From Escherichia coli (GTDB lineage: Bacteria; Pseudomonadota; Gammaproteobacteria; Enterobacterales; Enterobacteriaceae), in NCBI RefSeq assembly GCF_011045215.1, contig NZ_CP049201.1: 64,000 nt of DNA; one strand, written 5' to 3'. Every line of letters begins with the position of its first letter. Position 1 is the first letter of the stretch. Below the pieces are notes generated by a model, which did no database searches, was not told the DNA's origin, and saw only the letters and a program-made list of their open reading frames with translations. Positions 2,749-63,910 of this stretch are shown piece by piece. A program made the translations under genes and the position numbers.

Positions 2749-4089
2749 ATGAGTTCTCAATTTACGACGCCTGTTGTTACTGAAATGCAGGTCATCCCGG
2801 TGGCGGGCCATGACAGTATGCTGATGAATCTGAGTGGTGCACACGCACCGTTCTTCACGCGTAATATTGTGATTATCAAAGATAATTCTGGTCACACTGG
2901 CGTAGGGGAAATTCCCGGCGGCGAGAAAATCCGTAAAACGCTGGAAGATGCGATTCCGCTGGTAGTGGGTAAAACGCTGGGTGAATACAAAAACGTTCTG
3001 ACGCTGGTGCGTAATACTTTTGCCGATCGTGATGCCGGCGGGCGCGGTTTGCAGACATTTGATTTGCGTACCACTATTCATGTAGTTACCGGGATAGAAG
3101 CGGCAATGCTGGATCTGCTGGGGCAGCATCTGGGGGTTAACGTGGCATCGCTGCTGGGCGATGGTCAACAGCGTAGCGAAGTCGAAATGCTCGGTTATCT
3201 GTTCTTCGTCGGTAATCGCAAAGCCACACCTCTGCCGTATCAAAGCCAGCCGGATGACTCATGCGACTGGTATCGCCTGCGTCATGAAGAAGCGATGACG
3301 CCGGATGCGGTGGTGCGCCTGGCGGAAGCGGCGTATGAAAAATATGGCTTCAACGATTTCAAACTGAAAGGCGGTGTACTGGCCGGGGAAGAAGAGGCCG
3401 AGTCTATTGTGGCACTGGCGCAACGCTTCCCGCAGGCGCGTATTACGCTCGATCCTAACGGTGCCTGGTCGCTGAACGAAGCGATTAAAATTGGTAAATA
3501 CCTGAAAGGTTCGCTGGCTTATGCAGAAGATCCGTGTGGTGCGGAGCAAGGTTTCTCCGGGCGTGAAGTGATGGCAGAGTTCCGTCGCGCGACTGGCCTG
3601 CCGACTGCAACCAATATGATCGCTACCGACTGGCGGCAGATGGGCCATACGCTCTCGTTACAATCCGTTGATATCCCGCTGGCGGATCCGCATTTCTGGA
3701 CGATGCAAGGTTCGGTACGTGTGGCGCAAATGTGCCATGAATTTGGCCTGACCTGGGGTTCACACTCTAACAACCACTTCGATATTTCCCTGGCGATGTT
3801 TACCCATGTTGCCGCCGCTGCACCGGGTAAAATTACTGCTATTGATACGCACTGGATTTGGCAGGAAGGCAATCAGCGCCTGACCAAAGAACCGTTTGAG
3901 ATCAAAGGCGGGCTGGTACAGGTGCCAGAAAAACCGGGGCTGGGTGTAGAAATCGATATGGATCAAGTGATGAAAGCCCATGAGCTGTATCAGAAACACG
4001 GGCTTGGCGCGCGTGACGATGCGATGGGAATGCAGTATCTGATTCCTGGCTGGACGTTCGATAACAAGCGCCCGTGCATGGTGCGTTAA
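2749..4089 (+). CDS. gudD: glucarate dehydratase
   Basis: ORF track gives 2725 (TTG); the ATG at 2749 ([10 protein letters not shown]...) gives the expected 446 aa; enolase-superfamily motifs. Confidence 0.9.
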
Positions 4090-20304: not shown

Positions 20305-20577
20305 GAGTTCCCCGCGCCAGCGGGGATAAACCGTCGTCGAGAATCAGCACGAATGCCGCAACTGCGAGTTCCCCGCGCCAGCGGGGATAAACCGTGTGTA
20401 CGTCAGGCCCGTACCAGCATACCCCTGAGTTCCCCGCGCCAGCGGGGATAAACCGCCTACTCTCCTATTGCAGCAATTGCTGCGTCAGTGTTCCCCGCGC
20501 CAGCGGGGATAAACCGGGTACAAAAGAGGCCCCATTCTGGCAGGGCTCGAGTTCCCCGCGCCAGTGGGGATAAACCA
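20305..20577 (+). CRISPR. CRISPR array, type I-E repeats, 5 repeats / 4 spacers
   Basis: 29-bp repeat GAGTTCCCCGCGCCAGCGGGGATAAACCG at 20305, 20366, 20427, 20488 (GTG variant), 20549 (degenerate terminal). 32-bp spacers: tcgtcgagaatcagcacgaatgccgcaactgc; tgtgtacgtcaggcccgtaccagcatacccct; cctactctcctattgcagcaattgctgcgtca; ggtacaaaagaggccccattctggcagggctc. Confidence 0.97.
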
Positions 20578-53862: not shown

Positions 53863-55224
<1,362 letters not shown>

Positions 55225-55363
55225 AACGTGAGGAAATACCTGGATTTTTCCTGGTTATTTTGCCGCAGGTCAGCGTATCGTGAACATCTTTTCCAGTGTT
55301 CAGTATGGTGCCTTGCACGGTAATTATGTCACTGGTTATTAACCAATTTTTCCTGGGGGATAA

Positions 55364-56551
55364 ATGAGCGCGGGAAGCCCAAAATTCACCGTTCGCCGCA
55401 TTGCGGCTTTGTCACTGGTTTCGCTATGGCTGGCAGGCTGTTCTGACACTTCAAATCCACCGGCACCGGTCAGCTCCGTTAATGGCAATGCGCCTGCAAA
55501 TACCAATTCTGGTATGTTGATTACGCCGCCGCCGAAAATGGGGACGACGTCTACAGCGCAGCAACCGCAAATTCAGCCGGTGCAGCAGCCACAAATTCAG
55601 GCCACTCAACAACCGCAAATTCAGCCGGTGCAGCAGCCACAAATTCAGGCCACTCAACAACCGCAAATCCAGCCAGTGCAGCCAGTAGCTCAGCAGCCGG
55701 TACAGATGGAAAACGGACGCATCGTCTATAACCGTCAGTATGGGAACATTCCGAAAGGCAGTTATAGCGGCAGTACCTATACCGTGAAAAAAGGCGACAC
55801 ACTTTTCTATATCGCCTGGATTACTGGCAACGATTTCCGTGACCTTGCTCAGCGCAACAATATTCAGGCGCCCTACGCGCTGAACGTTGGTCAGACCTTG
55901 CAGGTGGGTAATGCTTCCGGTACGCCAATCACTGGCGGAAATGCCATTACCCAGGCCGATGCAGCAGAGCAAGGAGTTGTGATCAAGCCTGCACAAAATT
56001 CCACCGTTGCTGTTGCGTCGCAACCGACAATTACGTATTCTGAGTCTTCGGGTGAACAGAGTGCTAACAAAATGTTGCCGAACAACAAGCCAACTGCGAC
56101 CACGGTCACAGCGCCTGTAACGGTACCAACAGCAAGCACAACCGAGCCGACTGTCAGCAGTACATCAACCAGTACGCCTATCTCCACCTGGCGCTGGCCG
56201 ACTGAGGGCAAAGTGATCGAAACCTTTGGCGCTTCTGAGGGGGGCAACAAGGGGATTGATATCGCAGGCAGCAAAGGACAGGCAATTATCGCGACCGCAG
56301 ATGGCCGCGTTGTTTATGCCGGTAACGCGCTGCGCGGCTACGGTAATCTGATTATCATCAAACATAATGATGATTACCTGAGTGCCTACGCCCATAACGA
56401 CACAATGCTGGTCCGGGAACAACAAGAAGTGAAGGCGGGGCAAAAAATAGCAACCATGGGTAGCACCGGAACCAGTTCAACACGCTTGCATTTTGAAATT
56501 CGTTACAAGGGGAAATCCGTAAACCCGCTGCGTTATTTGCCGCAGCGATAA
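55364..56551 (+). CDS. nlpD: murein hydrolase activator lipoprotein NlpD
   Basis: 395-aa ORF; lipobox LAGCS; LysM; Q/P-rich repeats; C-terminal M23 LytM domain. Confidence 0.93.
55562..55681 (+). repeat. 48-bp in-frame tandem repeat inside nlpD (about 2.5 copies)
   Basis: Two identical 48-bp units at 55562-55609 and 55610-55657 (encoding [16 protein letters not shown]) plus a partial third copy. Confidence 0.85.
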
Positions 56552-56613
56552 ATCGGCGGAACCAGGCTTTTGCTTGAATGTTCCGTCAAGGGATCACGGG
56601 TAGGAGCCACCTT

Positions 56614-57606
56614 ATGAGTCAGAATACGCTGAAAGTTCATGATTTAAATGAAGATGCGGAATTTGATGAGAACGGAGTTGAGGTTTTTGACGAAAAGGCC
56701 TTAGTAGAAGAGGAACCCAGTGATAACGATTTGGCCGAAGAGGAACTGTTATCGCAGGGAGCCACACAGCGTGTGTTGGACGCGACTCAGCTTTACCTTG
56801 GTGAGATTGGTTATTCACCACTGTTAACGGCCGAAGAAGAAGTTTATTTTGCGCGTCGCGCACTGCGTGGAGATGTCGCCTCTCGCCGCCGGATGATCGA
56901 GAGTAACTTGCGTCTGGTGGTAAAAATTGCCCGCCGTTATGGCAATCGTGGTCTGGCGTTGCTGGACCTTATCGAAGAGGGCAACCTGGGGCTGATCCGC
57001 GCGGTAGAGAAGTTTGACCCGGAACGTGGTTTCCGCTTCTCAACATACGCAACCTGGTGGATTCGCCAGACGATTGAACGGGCGATTATGAACCAAACCC
57101 GTACTATTCGTTTGCCGATTCACATCGTAAAGGAGCTGAACGTTTACCTGCGAACCGCACGTGAGTTGTCCCATAAGCTGGACCATGAACCAAGTGCGGA
57201 AGAGATCGCAGAGCAACTGGATAAGCCAGTTGATGACGTCAGCCGTATGCTTCGTCTTAACGAGCGCATTACCTCGGTAGACACCCCGCTGGGTGGTGAT
57301 TCCGAAAAAGCGTTGCTGGACATCCTGGCCGATGAAAAAGAGAACGGTCCGGAAGATACCACGCAAGATGACGATATGAAGCAGAGCATCGTCAAATGGC
57401 TGTTCGAACTGAACGCCAAACAGCGTGAAGTACTGGCACGTCGATTCGGTTTGCTGGGGTACGAAGCGGCAACACTGGAAGATGTAGGTCGTGAAATTGG
57501 CCTCACCCGTGAACGTGTTCGCCAGATTCAGGTTGAAGGCCTGCGCCGTTTGCGCGAAATCCTGCAAACGCAGGGGCTGAATATCGAAGCGCTGTTCCGC
57601 GAATAA
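56614..57606 (+). CDS. rpoS: RNA polymerase sigma factor RpoS (sigma-38)
   Basis: ATG at 56614 after TAGGAG gives 330 aa ([20 protein letters not shown]...); the track ORF has an N-terminal extension; codon 33 is GAG (Glu), no amber. Confidence 0.96.
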
Positions 57607-57725: not shown

Positions 57726-58133
57726 CTATGTGTTCATCATCTTGCGCACCAGCTGCACAAACAGCTCCTGCTCTTCTGCACTCAAACGCCCCAAAAATTC
57801 CTCATCCACGCTGTCACCAATCGGTATCGCCGCAGCAAGTATCTTTTCTCCTTCGGCAGTCAGCCAGACAAAGCGACGCCGCTTGTCAGCGGCATCATGT
57901 TCACGTCTGACTAAGCCACGATTCTCCATTCTTGCCAACATTTCTGCCAACGTTGCTTTGGTGCTGACTGCTGCTTCTATCAGTGCCACCTGTTCGATAC
58001 CAGGCTTATCAGCAATGGCGCGCATCACCGCATACTGTGGTTTGGTCAGGTCAGGTAACTCGTGCTGCCAGCGAGCCGTGTGCTGCTGAAAAAGCTGTCG
58101 TAACTGATGGAACGCTTTATTTCGTAACGCCAT
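57726..58133 (-). CDS. MarR/SlyA-family transcriptional regulator
   Basis: 135-aa ORF with a winged-helix MarR-like profile; divergent from ecdB. Confidence 0.8.
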   Translation of the reverse strand: MALRNKAFHQLRQLFQQHTARWQHELPDLTKPQYAVMRAIADKPGIEQVALIEAAVSTKATLAEMLARMENRGLVRREHDAADKRRRFVWLTAEGEKILAAAIPIGDSVDEEFLGRLSAEEQELFVQLVRKMMNT

Positions 58134-58279
58134 GTAAACTCCGGGCTAATTCTCTGTCGCTATCATAGCGGTTTTTTAGTGACGAAGAAGATGTTGTTAC
58201 TTTTCAATCCTTGCCGCTGTGGAAATGAAGGAGTATGTTAATAATAACGTTCGTATACGAACAATTAAGAGAATAAGCA

Positions 58280-58873
58280 ATGAAACTGATCGTCGGGATG
58301 ACAGGGGCTACCGGTGCGCCTCTTGGTGTGGCATTACTGCAAGCGCTGCGGGAGATGCCGAATGTCGAGACTCATCTGGTGATGTCGAAGTGGGCGAAAA
58401 CCACCATTGAACTGGAAACGCCTTACAGCGCTCGCGATGTTGCTGCCCTCGCAGACTTCTGCCATAACCCGGCGGATCAGGCGGCGACCATCTCCTCAGG
58501 TTCCTTTCGTACCGACGGCATGATCGTTATTCCGTGCAGTATGAAAACGCTCGCCGGTATCCGCGCTGGTTACGCCGATGGCTTGGTAGGGCGCGCGGCG
58601 GACGTCGTGCTCAAAGAAGGCCGCAAACTGGTGCTGGTGCCGCGTGAAATGCCGCTTAGCACCATCCATCTCGAAAATATGCTCGCACTTTCACGCATGG
58701 GCGTGGCGATGGTGCCGCCGATGCCTGCCTTTTATAACCATCCCGAAACGGTAGATGACATTGTCCACCATGTGGTAGCCCGCGTGCTGGATCAATTTGG
58801 CCTCGAACATCCCCACGCCAGGCGCTGGCAAGGATTGCCGCAGGCCCGGAATTTTTCTCAGGAGAATGAATAA
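58280..58873 (+). CDS. ecdB: UbiX-like flavin prenyltransferase
   Basis: 197-aa ORF MKLIVGMTGATGAPLGVALLQAL... (flavoprotein fold, UbiX/Pad1 family). Confidence 0.88.
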   Translation: MKLIVGMTGATGAPLGVALLQALREMPNVETHLVMSKWAKTTIELETPYSARDVAALADFCHNPADQAATISSGSFRTDGMIVIPCSMKTLAGIRAGYADGLVGRAADVVLKEGRKLVLVPREMPLSTIHLENMLALSRMGVAMVPPMPAFYNHPETVDDIVHHVVARVLDQFGLEHPHARRWQGLPQARNFSQENE

Positions 58874-60300
58874 TGGCATTTGATGATTTACGCAGCTTTT
58901 TACAGGCGCTTGATGACCACGGCCAGTTACTGAAAATCAGCGAAGAAATGAACGCTGAACCGGATCTGGCTGCCGCTGCCAACGCCACCGGGCGTATCGG
59001 CGATGGTGCACCGGCGCTGTGGTTTGATAATATTCGCGGCTTTACCGATGCCCGCGTGGCGATGAATACCATCGGTTCCTGGCAGAACCACGCGATTTCC
59101 CTGGGCCTGCCGCCAAACACCCCGGTTAAAAAACAGATTGATGAATTCATCCGCCGCTGGGATAACTTCCCGATTGTCCCGGAACGCCGCGCCAATCCTG
59201 CCTGGGCGCAGAACACCGTCGATGGCGACGAGATTAATTTGTTCGATATCCTGCCACTGTTTCGTTTAAACGATGGCGATGGCGGTTTCTATCTCGACAA
59301 AGCCTGCGTGGTTTCCCGCGATCCGCTCGACCCAGATAACTTCGGCAAGCAGAACGTCGGCATCTACCGCATGGAAGTGAAGGGCAAGCGTAAGCTCGGC
59401 CTGCAACCGGTGCCGATGCACGATATCGCCCTGCATCTGCATAAAGCAGAAGAGCGCGGTGAAGATCTGCCGATTGCGATCACGCTCGGTAACGATCCGA
59501 TCATCACGCTGATGGGGGCCACGCCGCTGAAATACGATCAGTCTGAGTATGAAATGGCAGGCGCGCTGCGTGAAAGCCCGTACCCGATCGCCACCGCCCC
59601 GCTGACCGGTTTTGATGTGCCGTGGGGTTCAGAAGTGATCCTCGAAGGGGTCATCGAAAGCCGTAAGCGCGAAATCGAAGGGCCGTTCGGTGAGTTTACC
59701 GGACACTACTCCGGCGGGCGTAACATGACCGTGGTGCGCATCGATAAAGTCTCTTACCGCACCAGGCCGATTTTCGAATCGCTGTACCTCGGCATGCCGT
59801 GGACCGAAATCGACTACCTGATGGGGCCAGCCACCTGCGTACCGCTATATCAACAACTGAAAGCCGAGTTCCCGGAAGTGCAGGCGGTAAACGCCATGTA
59901 CACCCACGGCCTGCTGGCGATTATCTCCACCAAAAAACGCTACGGCGGCTTTGCCCGCGCGGTGGGCCTGCGCGCGATGACCACGCCGCACGGTCTGGGC
60001 TACGTGAAGATGGTGATTATGGTCGATGAAGACGTTGATCCGTTCAACCTGCCGCAGGTGATGTGGGCGCTCTCCTCGAAAGTGAACCCGGCAGGGGATT
60101 TGGTGCAGTTGCCGAATATGTCCGTGCTGGAACTCGACCCAGGCTCAAGCCCGGCGGGGATCACCGACAAGCTGATTATCGACGCCACCACGCCTGTTGC
60201 CCCGGACAACCGTGGTCACTACAGCCAGCCGGTGGTGGATTTACCGGAAACCAAAGCCTGGGCTGAAAAACTGACCGCTATGCTGGCTGCACGTAAATAA
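58873..60300 (+). CDS. ecdC: UbiD-family (prenyl-FMN-dependent) decarboxylase
   Basis: 475-aa ORF; start overlaps the ecdB stop (taATGg); UbiD-like architecture. Confidence 0.88.
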   Translation: MAFDDLRSFLQALDDHGQLLKISEEMNAEPDLAAAANATGRIGDGAPALWFDNIRGFTDARVAMNTIGSWQNHAISLGLPPNTPVKKQIDEFIRRWDNFPIVPERRANPAWAQNTVDGDEINLFDILPLFRLNDGDGGFYLDKACVVSRDPLDPDNFGKQNVGIYRMEVKGKRKLGLQPVPMHDIALHLHKAEERGEDLPIAITLGNDPIITLMGATPLKYDQSEYEMAGALRESPYPIATAPLTGFDVPWGSEVILEGVIESRKREIEGPFGEFTGHYSGGRNMTVVRIDKVSYRTRPIFESLYLGMPWTEIDYLMGPATCVPLYQQLKAEFPEVQAVNAMYTHGLLAIISTKKRYGGFARAVGLRAMTTPHGLGYVKMVIMVDEDVDPFNLPQVMWALSSKVNPAGDLVQLPNMSVLELDPGSSPAGITDKLIIDATTPVAPDNRGHYSQPVVDLPETKAWAEKLTAMLAARK

Positions 60301-61348: not shown

Positions 61349-63910
61349 TTACACCAGACTCTTCAAGCGATAAATCCACTCCAGCGCCTGACGCGGGGTG
61401 AGTGAATCCGGATCGAGGTTTTCCAGTGCCTCGACCGCAGGCGAAGTTTCTTCCGGTACTGACAGCAAAGACATTTGCGTACCATCCACTTGCGTAGCGG
61501 CGGCGTTCGGCGAAATGCTTTCCAGCTCACGCAGTTTTTGCCGTGCGCGCTTAATAACCTCTTTTGGCACGCCGGCCAGAGCTGCAACCGCCAGGCCGTA
61601 GCTTTTGCTCGCCGCGCCATCCTGCACGCTATGCATAAAGGCAATGGTGTCGCCGTGCTCCAGTGCATCGAGATGCACGTTGGCGACGCCTTCCATTTTC
61701 TCCGGTAACTGGGTCAGCTCAAAATAGTGGGTAGCAAACAGCGTCAATGCCTTAATCTTATTCGCCAGATTTTCCGCGCACGCCCATGCCAGTGACAGAC
61801 CATCGTAAGTGGACGTTCCACGCCCGATCTCATCCATTAACACCAGACTGTATTCGGTGGCGTTATGTAAAATATTGGCGGTTTCAGTCATCTCCACCAT
61901 AAAGGTTGAGCGCCCGGAAGCCAGGTCATCTGCCGCGCCTACGCGGGTAAAGATACGGTCAATCGGTCCAATCTCGACTTTTTGTGCCGGTACATAGCTG
62001 CCGATGTAGGCCATCAGCGCAATCAGTGCGGTCTGGCGCATATAGGTACTTTTACCACCCATGTTCGGACCGGTGATGATCAACATGCGGCGCTGCGGCG
62101 ACAGATTCAGCGGGTTAGCGATAAATGGCTCATTCAGTACTTGTTCAACTACCGGATGGCGACCTTCGGTAATGCGAATGCCCGGTTTATCAATAAAGGT
62201 CGGGCAGGTGTAATTCAGGGTATAGGCCCGTTCCGCCAGGTTCACCAGCACGTCGAGTTCCGCCAGCGCGCTCGCGCTCTGTTGCAACGCTTCCAGATGC
62301 GGCAACAGCAGGTCGAACAACTCTTCATAAAGCTGTTTTTCCAGTGCCAGTGCTTTGCCTTTTGAGGTGAGAACTTTATCTTCGTACTCTTTTAGCTCTG
62401 GAATGATGTAGCGCTCGGCGTTTTTCAGCGTCTGGCGACGCATGTAGTTGATGGGTGCCAGATGGCTTTGCCCACGGCTGATTTGAATGTAGTAGCCGTG
62501 CACCGCATTAAAGCCAACTTTCAGCGTGTCCAGGCCGGTACGTTCACGCTCGCGGACTTCCAGACGCTCCAGATAATCGGTCGCGCCGTCAGCCAGCGCG
62601 CGCCACTCATCCAGCTCTTCGTTATAGCCCGATGCGATAACACCACCGTCGCGTACCAGCACCGGCGGTGCGTCGATGATTGCTCGCTCCAGCAGATCGC
62701 GCAGCTCGGCAAACTCGCCCATCTTCTCACGTAGCGCCTGTACCGGTGCACTATCAACAGGTTCTAACTGCGCACGCAGCTCCGGCAGTTGCTGGAAAGC
62801 GTGACGCATACGGGCCAGATCGCGTGGGCGAGCGGTACGCAACGCCAGACGCGCCAGAATACGTTCCAGGTCGCCAACCTGACGTAGTACCGGCTGTAGC
62901 CCGGCGGTGAAATCCTGCAATGCGCCAATAGTTTGCTGGCGCTCAAGCAACACGCGGGTATCGCGCACTGGCATATGCAGCCAGCGTTTCAGCATACGGC
63001 TGCCCATCGGCGTGACGGTGCAGTCGAGTACAGAAGCCAGCGTGTTTTCCGCACTGCCCGCCAGGTTCTGGGTAATTTCCAGGTTACGACGCGTCGCGGC
63101 ATCCATAATGATGCTGTCCTGCTCACGTTCCATGGTGATGGAACGAATATGCGGCAGAGTCGTACGTTGGGTATCTTTCGCATACTGCAACAGACAACCG
63201 GCAGCACAAAGTCCGCGCGGCGCGTTCTCGACGCCAAAACCGACCAGATCGCGAGTGCCAAATTGTAGATTCAACTGCTGGCGCGCGGTGTCGATTTCAA
63301 ACTCCCACAGCGGGCGACGGCGCAGGCCGCGACGGCCTTCAATTAACGACATTTCAGCAAAATCTTCTGCATACAGCAGTTCCGCAGGATTAGTGCGTTG
63401 CAGTTCTGCCGCCATCGTTTCCCGGTCAGCCGGTTCGCTCAGGCGAAAACGACCGGAACTGATATCCAGCGTCGCGTAGCCGAAACCTTTGCTGTCCTGC
63501 CAGATAGCCGCCAGCAGGTTGTCCTGACGCTCCTGCAACAGGGCTTCATCGCTGATGGTGCCTGGCGTAACGATACGCACAACTTTGCGCTCAACCGGAC
63601 CTTTGCTGGTCGCCGGATCGCCAATTTGTTCGCAGATGGCAACGGACTCGCCCTGATTCACCAGTTTGGCGAGGTAGTTTTCCACCGCATGGTAGGGAAT
63701 CCCCGCCATCGGGATCGGCTCTCCCGCCGAAGCACCGCGTTTGGTCAGTGAAATATCCAGCAGTTGCGATGCGCGTTTTGCGTCGTCATAAAACAGTTCA
63801 TAAAAATCACCCATCCGGTAAAACAGCAGGATCTCGGGATGCTGGGCTTTCAGCTTGAGATACTGCTGCATCATGGGCGTATGGGCGTCGAAATTTTCTA
63901 TTGCACTCAT
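61349..63910 (-). CDS. mutS: DNA mismatch repair protein MutS
   Basis: 853-aa [43 protein letters not shown]...; Walker [10 protein letters not shown]. Confidence 0.97.

Follow-up and report, generated by a model that had tools for sequence, protein, structure and literature searches.

In Escherichia coli, duplications and deletions between short tandem direct repeats reportedly arise independently of RecA, through replication slippage or sister-strand exchange. The locus described here, an in-frame repeat array in nlpD, resembles such rearrangements in three respects: imperfect repeats of 24–28 nt with a spacing of 48 bp flank the repeated unit in the ancestral allele, both of the reciprocal products (NlpD proteins of 363 and 395 aa) are found in nature, and each junction variant can be assigned to its own crossover point in the repeat. 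It differs from them in that the mechanism at nlpD is deduced from its products alone.

The role of NlpD in AmiC activation and daughter-cell separation is established for the K-12 protein (PMC5533458). The lipobox and the acylated cysteine of NlpD have been described, its LysM domain is the determinant of septal localisation, and its degenerate LytM/M23 domain is the part that activates AmiC (PMC5533458). Both of the NlpD linkers, including the N-terminal one, are predicted by DISOPRED to be disordered (Tsang, Yakhnina and Bernhardt 2017, PMC5533458). Anchoring of NlpD in the outer membrane is needed for efficient, regulated AmiC activation, and it has been argued that the two long linkers make it unlikely that anchoring alone limits the reach of the protein (PMC5533458).

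Disordered linkers of outer-membrane lipoproteins have been studied more widely (El Rayes et al., bioRxiv 10.1101/2021.01.05.425367), including the linker of Pal (PMC12826056) and that of RcsF in relation to the size of the periplasm (PMC5736177). When aa 29-64 are deleted from the NlpD linker, about 60% of NlpD stays in the inner membrane and complementation is impaired (bioRxiv 10.1101/2021.01.05.425367), and shortening of the Pal linker has graded effects (PMC12826056). No lengthening of the NlpD tether is among the changes made in these NlpD and Pal linker studies (PMC5533458, bioRxiv 10.1101/2021.01.05.425367, PMC12826056). The array that we describe is comparable to the length-dependent linkers of RcsF, Pal and NlpD in that it sits in the disordered segment right after the lipid anchor. 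In contrast to the deletion of aa 29-64, it is a natural lengthening by 16 residues and affects the Q/P-rich part from aa 67 onward, outside the deleted segment.

A natural in-frame indel in nlpD has also been described in Salmonella Typhimurium UK-1, where a 12-bp deletion was judged by its authors to be unlikely to affect rpoS (PMC3391293). Like the expansion reported here, that deletion keeps the reading frame and falls outside the rpoS promoter, on its upstream side; the two differ in species, size and direction.

The nlpD gene carries an in-frame 48-bp tandem array

We analyzed a 64-kb stretch of DNA, which we refer to as the window. Its nlpD coding sequence, encoding the murein hydrolase activator NlpD, an outer-membrane lipoprotein, lies on the + strand at 55364..56551 (395 aa plus stop) and was assigned from the open reading frame, Pfam matches, identity to K-12 and synteny. 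The gene matched annotated nlpD in 5,421 of 5,426 complete E. coli genomes, and its neighbors are pcm upstream and rpoS downstream, the pcm-nlpD-rpoS order of K-12. From the sequence and the published description (PMC5533458), the lipobox L-A-G-C was placed at aa 23-26 (55430..55441, + strand); it ends in Cys26 (codon 55439-55441), the acylated anchor residue, which was invariant in a 35-sequence NlpD alignment. The N-terminal tether follows at aa 27-138 (55442..55777, + strand) and comprises 112 residues, of which 25 are Q and 18 are P. It leads into the LysM peptidoglycan-binding domain at aa 139-181 (55778..55906, + strand; Pfam PF01476, E = 2.9e-12). A second linker at aa 182-294 (55907..56245, + strand; limits from Pfam and PMC5533458) is free of the repeat and connects LysM to the Peptidase_M23 (degenerate LytM) domain at aa 295-388 (56246..56527, + strand; Pfam PF01551, E = 5e-33). 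Both domain matches exceeded the curated Pfam cut-offs. We conclude from the lipobox cysteine, the order of LysM followed by M23, the identity to K-12 and the synteny that the window open reading frame is NlpD. An AlphaFold2 model built on the 35-sequence alignment had a mean pLDDT of 32, with even the M23 domain below 50, and held no information specific to the tether, for whose disorder we draw on its composition and on the published DISOPRED prediction (PMC5533458). At the level of the surrounding DNA, the window was only 97.2-98.2% identical over 19-24 kb to the best-matching complete E. coli genomes, and about 99.1-99.6% identical to K-12 across truD-rpoS.

Tandem Repeats Finder identified a repeat at 55562-55682 with a period of 48 bp, 2.5 copies, 97% matches and no indels (score 228), which is the top-scoring tandem repeat of the whole window. 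A 24-bp period is nested within it (5.4 copies, 72% matches). The longest run of matches at a lag of 48 was 59 nt; in 50 shuffled sequences such runs averaged 7.5 nt and never exceeded 9 nt. The first 48-bp unit (55562..55609, + strand) encodes 16 residues, aa 67-82, and is built from two 24-bp subunits, A and B. The second unit (55610..55657, + strand; aa 83-98) is identical to the first and represents the extra copy relative to K-12. It is followed by a partial third copy of 24-25 nt, subunit A2 (55658..55681, + strand), which encodes QPQIQPVQ (aa 99-106) and agrees with subunit A at 22 of 24 nt; in the ancestral allele A2 and A form an imperfect direct repeat. A degenerate fourth 24-bp subunit (55682..55705, + strand) encodes PVAQQPVQ (aa 107-114). 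The array is in frame within the 395-aa open reading frame, reading as the same 16-residue peptide twice and then QPQIQPVQ, and has the head-to-tail copies and the unit length divisible by three that characterize an in-frame variable-number tandem repeat (VNTR). An Rfam scan of the window returned no RNA family at the array locus.

NlpD of K-12 MG1655 is 379 aa long and holds 1.5 units, whereas the window protein is 395 aa long and holds one further 16-residue unit, giving a tether of 112 residues compared with 96. Removal of one unit from the window protein yielded the exact K-12 protein with zero other amino-acid differences, and the 8 nucleotide differences between the two genes outside the extra unit were all synonymous. 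The lipobox, LysM, the degenerate LytM/M23 domain and the pcm-nlpD-rpoS arrangement are common to both. A first-pass annotation of this DNA had described two perfect 48-bp units with a partial third, their encoded peptide and a gain of exactly one unit over K-12, and all of these were confirmed, the repeat structure and peptide by Tandem Repeats Finder and translation and the gain by the unit deletion. It had also placed the array between the LysM and M23 domains, which is wrong, as aa 67-106 fall between Cys26 and LysM.

Expanded alleles are rare in E. coli

Copy number was called using queries that included the flanks of the array, with an E-value limit of 1e-80, such that a single contiguous match was required; a positive control passed. 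Plain BLAST with the array or the whole gene is blind to copy number because two overlapping 1.5-copy pieces are joined to give 100% coverage. We found that 5,335 of the 5,426 complete E. coli genomes (98.3%) carry 1.5 copies, the 379-aa form of K-12, and that 61 (1.1%) carry 0.5 copies, a contraction by one unit that leaves 363 aa. Alleles with 2.5 or more copies were found in 0 of 5,426 at the same E-value threshold, as was the 121-bp array at ≥99% identity. The contractions are present on several backgrounds, and their carriers include an O157:H7 subgroup (EC4115, TW14359, SS17 and SS52).

Protein lengths were also counted by exact-sequence look-up in a much larger collection, with each count given in contigs. 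The 379-aa protein was present in at least 1,000 contigs, the 363-aa protein in 160, two variants of 371 aa in 25 contigs and 1 contig, the 387-aa protein in 3, and the 395-aa protein of the window in only 6. Exact-sequence look-up for proteins of 411 and 427 aa showed both to be absent from this larger collection. Length changes of other kinds occur nearby. Strain Rb-50 carries a 9-bp duplication encoding PVQ astride the boundary between A2 and the fourth subunit, giving an NlpD of 382 aa; E. coli P0017 carries a 72-bp in-frame duplication in a different register in the same segment of nlpD; and a related Escherichia lineage, with flanks about 89% identical, has a 72-bp unit at 2.5 copies.

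The number of copies in nlpD therefore differs among E. coli strains, as in a VNTR. The expectation that the site changes length recurrently holds, given alleles of 363, 371, 382, 387, 395 and about 403 aa in addition to 379 aa, and the count of repeat units across E. coli that had been proposed as a check shows that most strains hold the K-12 copy number (5,335/5,426) and that the window differs. Our literature searches on an nlpD tandem repeat or VNTR did not find this polymorphism described in E. coli. Proteins representing the NlpD length variants are already deposited in public databases.

The expansion has probably arisen more than once

Five other NCBI assemblies (L002 to L006), which supply five of the 6 contigs counted above, encode an NlpD identical to the 395-aa protein of the window. 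We compared the units and flanks of these six expanded genomes. Four unit haplotypes were present (GTG/GCC, GTG/GCT, GTA/GCT and GTA/GCC), and within each genome the full units share their synonymous variants. The two units are identical in the window, L002, L004, L005 and L006. L003 has a different hybrid junction, its second unit bearing the beginning of the partial copy, which points to a different crossover point, so that two junction types exist overall. All flank haplotypes are distinct, with 17-49 pairwise mismatches over 5.1 kb of flanks, and two different gene arrangements occur downstream of rpoS. Taken together, six flank haplotypes, four unit haplotypes and two junction types suggest recurrent, recent duplications on unrelated backgrounds. 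This haplotype comparison indicates that the 395-aa alleles probably arose several times by recent duplication, and recurrent independent change of this sort is a further feature of a VNTR. Recombination or gene conversion within the array may partly confound the assignment of independent origins.

The K-12 gene contains a family of direct repeats, D1, with members of 28 nt, 89% identity and a 48-bp spacing. About 98% of E. coli have the ancestral allele, which can be written A-B-A′, where A and A′ are direct repeats of 24-28 nt with about 90% identity. If A mispaired with A′ while the DNA was being replicated, or if sister strands exchanged unequally, the A-B-A-B-A′ arrangement of the window (395 aa) would result, and the reciprocal event would leave a single A (363 aa). 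Judged from the sequences, the extra unit most likely arose at the imperfect repeats by one of these two routes, slipped-strand mispairing or unequal sister-strand exchange. Single-strand DNA folding of the array showed no unusual structure or hairpin potential (z = 0.78), and slippage driven by a hairpin was dropped as a cause on these grounds. A defect in mismatch repair was also rejected, as mutS is full-length in the window (an 853-aa open reading frame at 61349-63910); mismatch repair is not expected to act on 48-bp slippage.

The expanded array offers 59 bp of exact and ~73 bp of near-perfect (71/73) tandem homology, and should therefore be more prone than the ancestral allele to reversion or further change. 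Ready reversion would account for the finding of expansions only as scattered singletons with identical units. We attribute the excess of contractions over expansions to the same asymmetry: a contraction would lose the repeat, become stable and be inherited clonally, and an expansion would be readily lost. Selection against long tethers is an alternative to faster reversion as a reason for the rarity of expansions relative to contractions. On the basis of its structure, position, rarity and spread over haplotypes, we are largely confident that the feature is a recent in-frame 48-bp tandem duplication, which would have originated by slippage and would be both nearly neutral and unstable.

The extra unit lengthens the tether between the lipid anchor and LysM

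The extra unit lengthens the Q/P-rich tether between Cys26 and LysM. It alters neither of the two folded domains, LysM and M23, and leaves both the reading frame and the promoter of rpoS as they are. We asked how this length compares with that of relatives. The distance from the cysteine to LysM in 119 related Enterobacteriaceae NlpD proteins was 79-102 residues and mostly 90-97, and the window tether of 112 residues is outside this usual range, together with a few other singletons at 120-122 residues. The Q/P-rich sequence of the tether drifts among Enterobacteriaceae, and it is mainly in Escherichia that a regular QPQIQxxQ pattern can be clearly recognized. By this comparison, the length of the NlpD tether appears to be conserved more than its sequence. 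The narrow range of lengths and the single length held by 98.3% of E. coli fit stabilizing selection, in which case an addition of 16 residues could carry a cost or a benefit. The natural tethers form a series of 80, 88, 96, 99, 104, 112 and 120 residues in E. coli, with 122 residues in the related Escherichia lineage.

A random-coil estimate of end-to-end distance, based on the scaling law of Kohn et al. 2004, gave 6.5 nm for 80 residues, 7.2 nm for 96 and 7.9 nm for 112, so that the predicted gain in reach from 96 to 112 residues is about 0.7 nm, or about 10%. We infer that the effect of the extra unit on NlpD function is most likely small or nil, and a measurable functional shift from the longer tether seems doubtful.

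The array lies upstream of the intragenic rpoS promoter

The rpoS coding sequence downstream of nlpD is intact (56614..57606, + strand; 330 aa), as judged by its open reading frame and its annotation in matching genomes. The main rpoS start site is 567 nt upstream of the rpoS ATG and inside nlpD (PMC10948607). Using this distance to place the start site and reading the hexamers by eye (a strict consensus scan found none), we assigned a putative intragenic promoter to 56013..56047 on the + strand, with TTGCGT at 56013-56018, a 17-nt spacer, TATTCT at 56036-56041 and a start near 56047. With its end at 55682, about 365 nt before this start site, the array is outside both the promoter and the 567-nt 5′ untranslated region of rpoS, and belongs to neither a promoter nor a leader element. 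That the repeat is upstream of rpoS, and that the main rpoS promoter is inside nlpD, had been stated in the first-pass annotation and is borne out (PMC10948607). The link to rpoS hinted at there is unsupported, given the distance of about 365 nt from the array end to the inferred start site and the lack of new local sequence in the array.

Alternative explanations

We considered whether the extra unit could be an assembly artefact, in which mis-assembly or a consensus error added a unit to a genome that in truth holds 1.5 copies. The count of 0 expansions in 5,426 complete genomes would fit such an error, and the copy number is that given by the assembly. However, at 121 bp the array is shorter than ordinary short reads, which makes collapse or expansion unlikely; five independent NCBI assemblies, differing in DNA haplotype, encode this 395-aa protein too; and the added 48 bp repeat the unit perfectly and keep the frame, unlike a typical long-read error. 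We therefore regard an artefact as very improbable. A different reading takes the array for a contingency locus, that is, a hypermutable repeat through which a surface-exposed protein undergoes phase or antigenic variation, and it draws on the variation of copy number in both directions and the several in-frame variants. Such a function is exceedingly hard to reconcile with a 48-bp unit that keeps the frame and so allows no on/off switching, with the low copy numbers seen (only 1.5-2.5), with one allele in 98.3% of genomes and with the strong purifying selection that otherwise acts on NlpD, 8 of 8 nucleotide differences from K-12 being synonymous. A recent duplication remains our preferred account of the feature.

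The duplication could also matter through what it does in cis or to the protein. An effect in cis on rpoS might run through the bicistronic nlpD-rpoS transcript or the intragenic promoter; the two genes form an operon, transcription from the upstream promoter yields a bicistronic RNA at a low level (PMC10948607), and the array is inside that transcript. Against this stand the position of the array, about 365 nt upstream of the rpoS start site and outside the 567-nt leader, and its content. Hybrid A/A′ variant positions aside, every local sequence of the expanded array, including the junction, already exists in the 1.5-copy allele, and the duplication therefore brings no new motif. A consensus scan of 55200-56650 for promoters and terminators found no site within the array, and an analogous argument was made for the 12-bp nlpD deletion of Salmonella UK-1 (PMC3391293). 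We consider an effect of the duplication on rpoS unlikely, and the chance that it acts through either of these cis routes to be very slight. For the protein, the tether length may instead be under adaptive tuning, whereby a longer tether alters reach to septal peptidoglycan or AmiC, or Lol sorting, and has been selected in some backgrounds, with 363 aa as the opposite setting. Several observations would be in keeping with tuning: the tether length is tightly kept across species despite sequence drift; NlpD needs its anchor for proper function and regulation, and a reach model is discussed in that work (PMC5533458); loss of aa 29-64 mis-sorts NlpD and makes it complement poorly (bioRxiv 10.1101/2021.01.05.425367); Pal is sensitive to the length of its linker (PMC12826056); and a successful subgroup of O157:H7 is fixed for the 363-aa allele. 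The expansions, however, show no clonal spread, each occurring singly on an unrelated haplotype; reach is predicted to change by about 10%; and with two linkers of such length, reach has been argued to be an unlikely limit (PMC5533458). Our literature searches also found no paper on natural NlpD length variants, which counts against tuning as well. On balance we view adaptive tuning as unlikely, and favor a recent duplication of little or no consequence for the protein.

Implications

The expansion is rare, recurrent and probably short-lived; it changes the length of a low-complexity tether encoded by a well-known gene, and is as such an ordinary polymorphism. Taken alone it matters little, being a rare allele in a well-studied gene whose likely mutational process is well understood, and it has no apparent relevance to the regulation of rpoS. 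Two modest uses can be named. Because an O157:H7 subgroup, among other clones, can be told by its 48-bp contraction, the locus is usable as a simple PCR-size marker. The alleles of 363, 371, 382, 387 and about 403 aa, together with that of 395 aa, also constitute a natural tether-length series, which could be used to test whether an outer-membrane lipoprotein that must act on peptidoglycan depends on the length of its disordered linker, a question that is under current study for Pal, RcsF and the Lol pathway. The value of the 395-aa allele is mainly that of one member of this series. We think it improbable that this series is functional, with the tether acting as a molecular ruler for reach to septal peptidoglycan and AmiC or for the efficiency of Lol sorting. 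If the tether did serve as such a ruler, the 112-residue allele and the 80-residue allele fixed in the O157:H7 subgroup would have a measurable influence on when the septal wall is cleaved or on how its cleavage is regulated.

Length variants of NlpD in Escherichia

Database lengths of NlpD depend on the annotated start codon. In the RefSeq record of MG1655 (NZ_CP010443.1, comparison locus 1546-2640), the annotated nlpD start is an internal codon that yields 364 aa, and the same gene encodes 379 aa when counted from the upstream ATG. The use of an internal start in RefSeq annotation therefore results in 15-aa length differences for a single allele, as between the 364- and 379-aa clusters or between 388 and ~403 aa.

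The glutamine- and proline-rich segment of nlpD also carries other length variants. At the site homologous to the window array, a related Escherichia lineage that is ~89% identical upstream (GCA_026283405.1, positions 3188-3364 of its comparison locus) has a 72-bp unit at 2.5 copies, resulting in a 405-aa NlpD with a tether of 122 residues. This array is a parallel expansion, and its unit length is unlike the 48 bp of the window array. E. coli Rb-50 carries a 9-bp duplication, CCAGTGCAG, which encodes PVQ at aa 93-95 and gives a 382-aa protein, and the draft genome of another E. coli (NlpD P0017) carries a 72-bp duplication in another register within this Q/P-rich segment. These two duplications are further in-frame slippage variants.

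Genomic setting of the window

With mutS present as a full-length 853-aa open reading frame (61349-63910, minus strand) and rpoS intact with E at residue 33 (56614-57606), inspection of both reading frames in the window gave no sign of a mismatch-repair-defective or rpoS-null background. The segment between these genes is variable. At 57726-60300 the window has a MarR-family gene on the minus strand (57726-58133), followed by one gene for a flavoprotein resembling UbiX (58280-58873) and another for a decarboxylase of the UbiD type (58873-60300); ygbN occupies the corresponding position in K-12. Both arrangements are found among genomes carrying the 395-aa nlpD allele.

From truD through pcm and nlpD to rpoS, the window is about 99.1-99.6% identical to K-12. 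Across 20000-64000, identity over 19-24 kb reaches only 97.2-98.2% in the best matches among 5,426 complete E. coli genomes. Either the complete genomes in RefSeq cover the source lineage poorly, or that lineage is mosaic in this region. The window also holds a very short CRISPR array (20305-20455; 61-bp period, 2.5 copies, repeat GAGTTCCCCGCGCCAGCGGGGATAAACCG), which type I-E cas genes adjoin. The plus strand at 37133-37290 matches the Rfam family of the sok antitoxin RNA (RF01794) with 111.7 bits, where the gathering score is 59; this suggests that a toxin-antitoxin locus of the hok/sok type lies here on the chromosome.

Reciprocal contraction of nlpD

The reciprocal 48-bp contraction, which leaves a 363-aa NlpD with an 80-residue tether, occurs in 61 of the complete E. 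coli genomes, as exemplified at nlpD nt 187-330 in O157:H7 TW14359 and strain AMSHJX01. O157:H7 carriers include EC4115, TW14359, SS17, SS52 and JEONG-1266, and other O157:H7 strains keep 1.5 copies. The contraction could serve as a clade marker.
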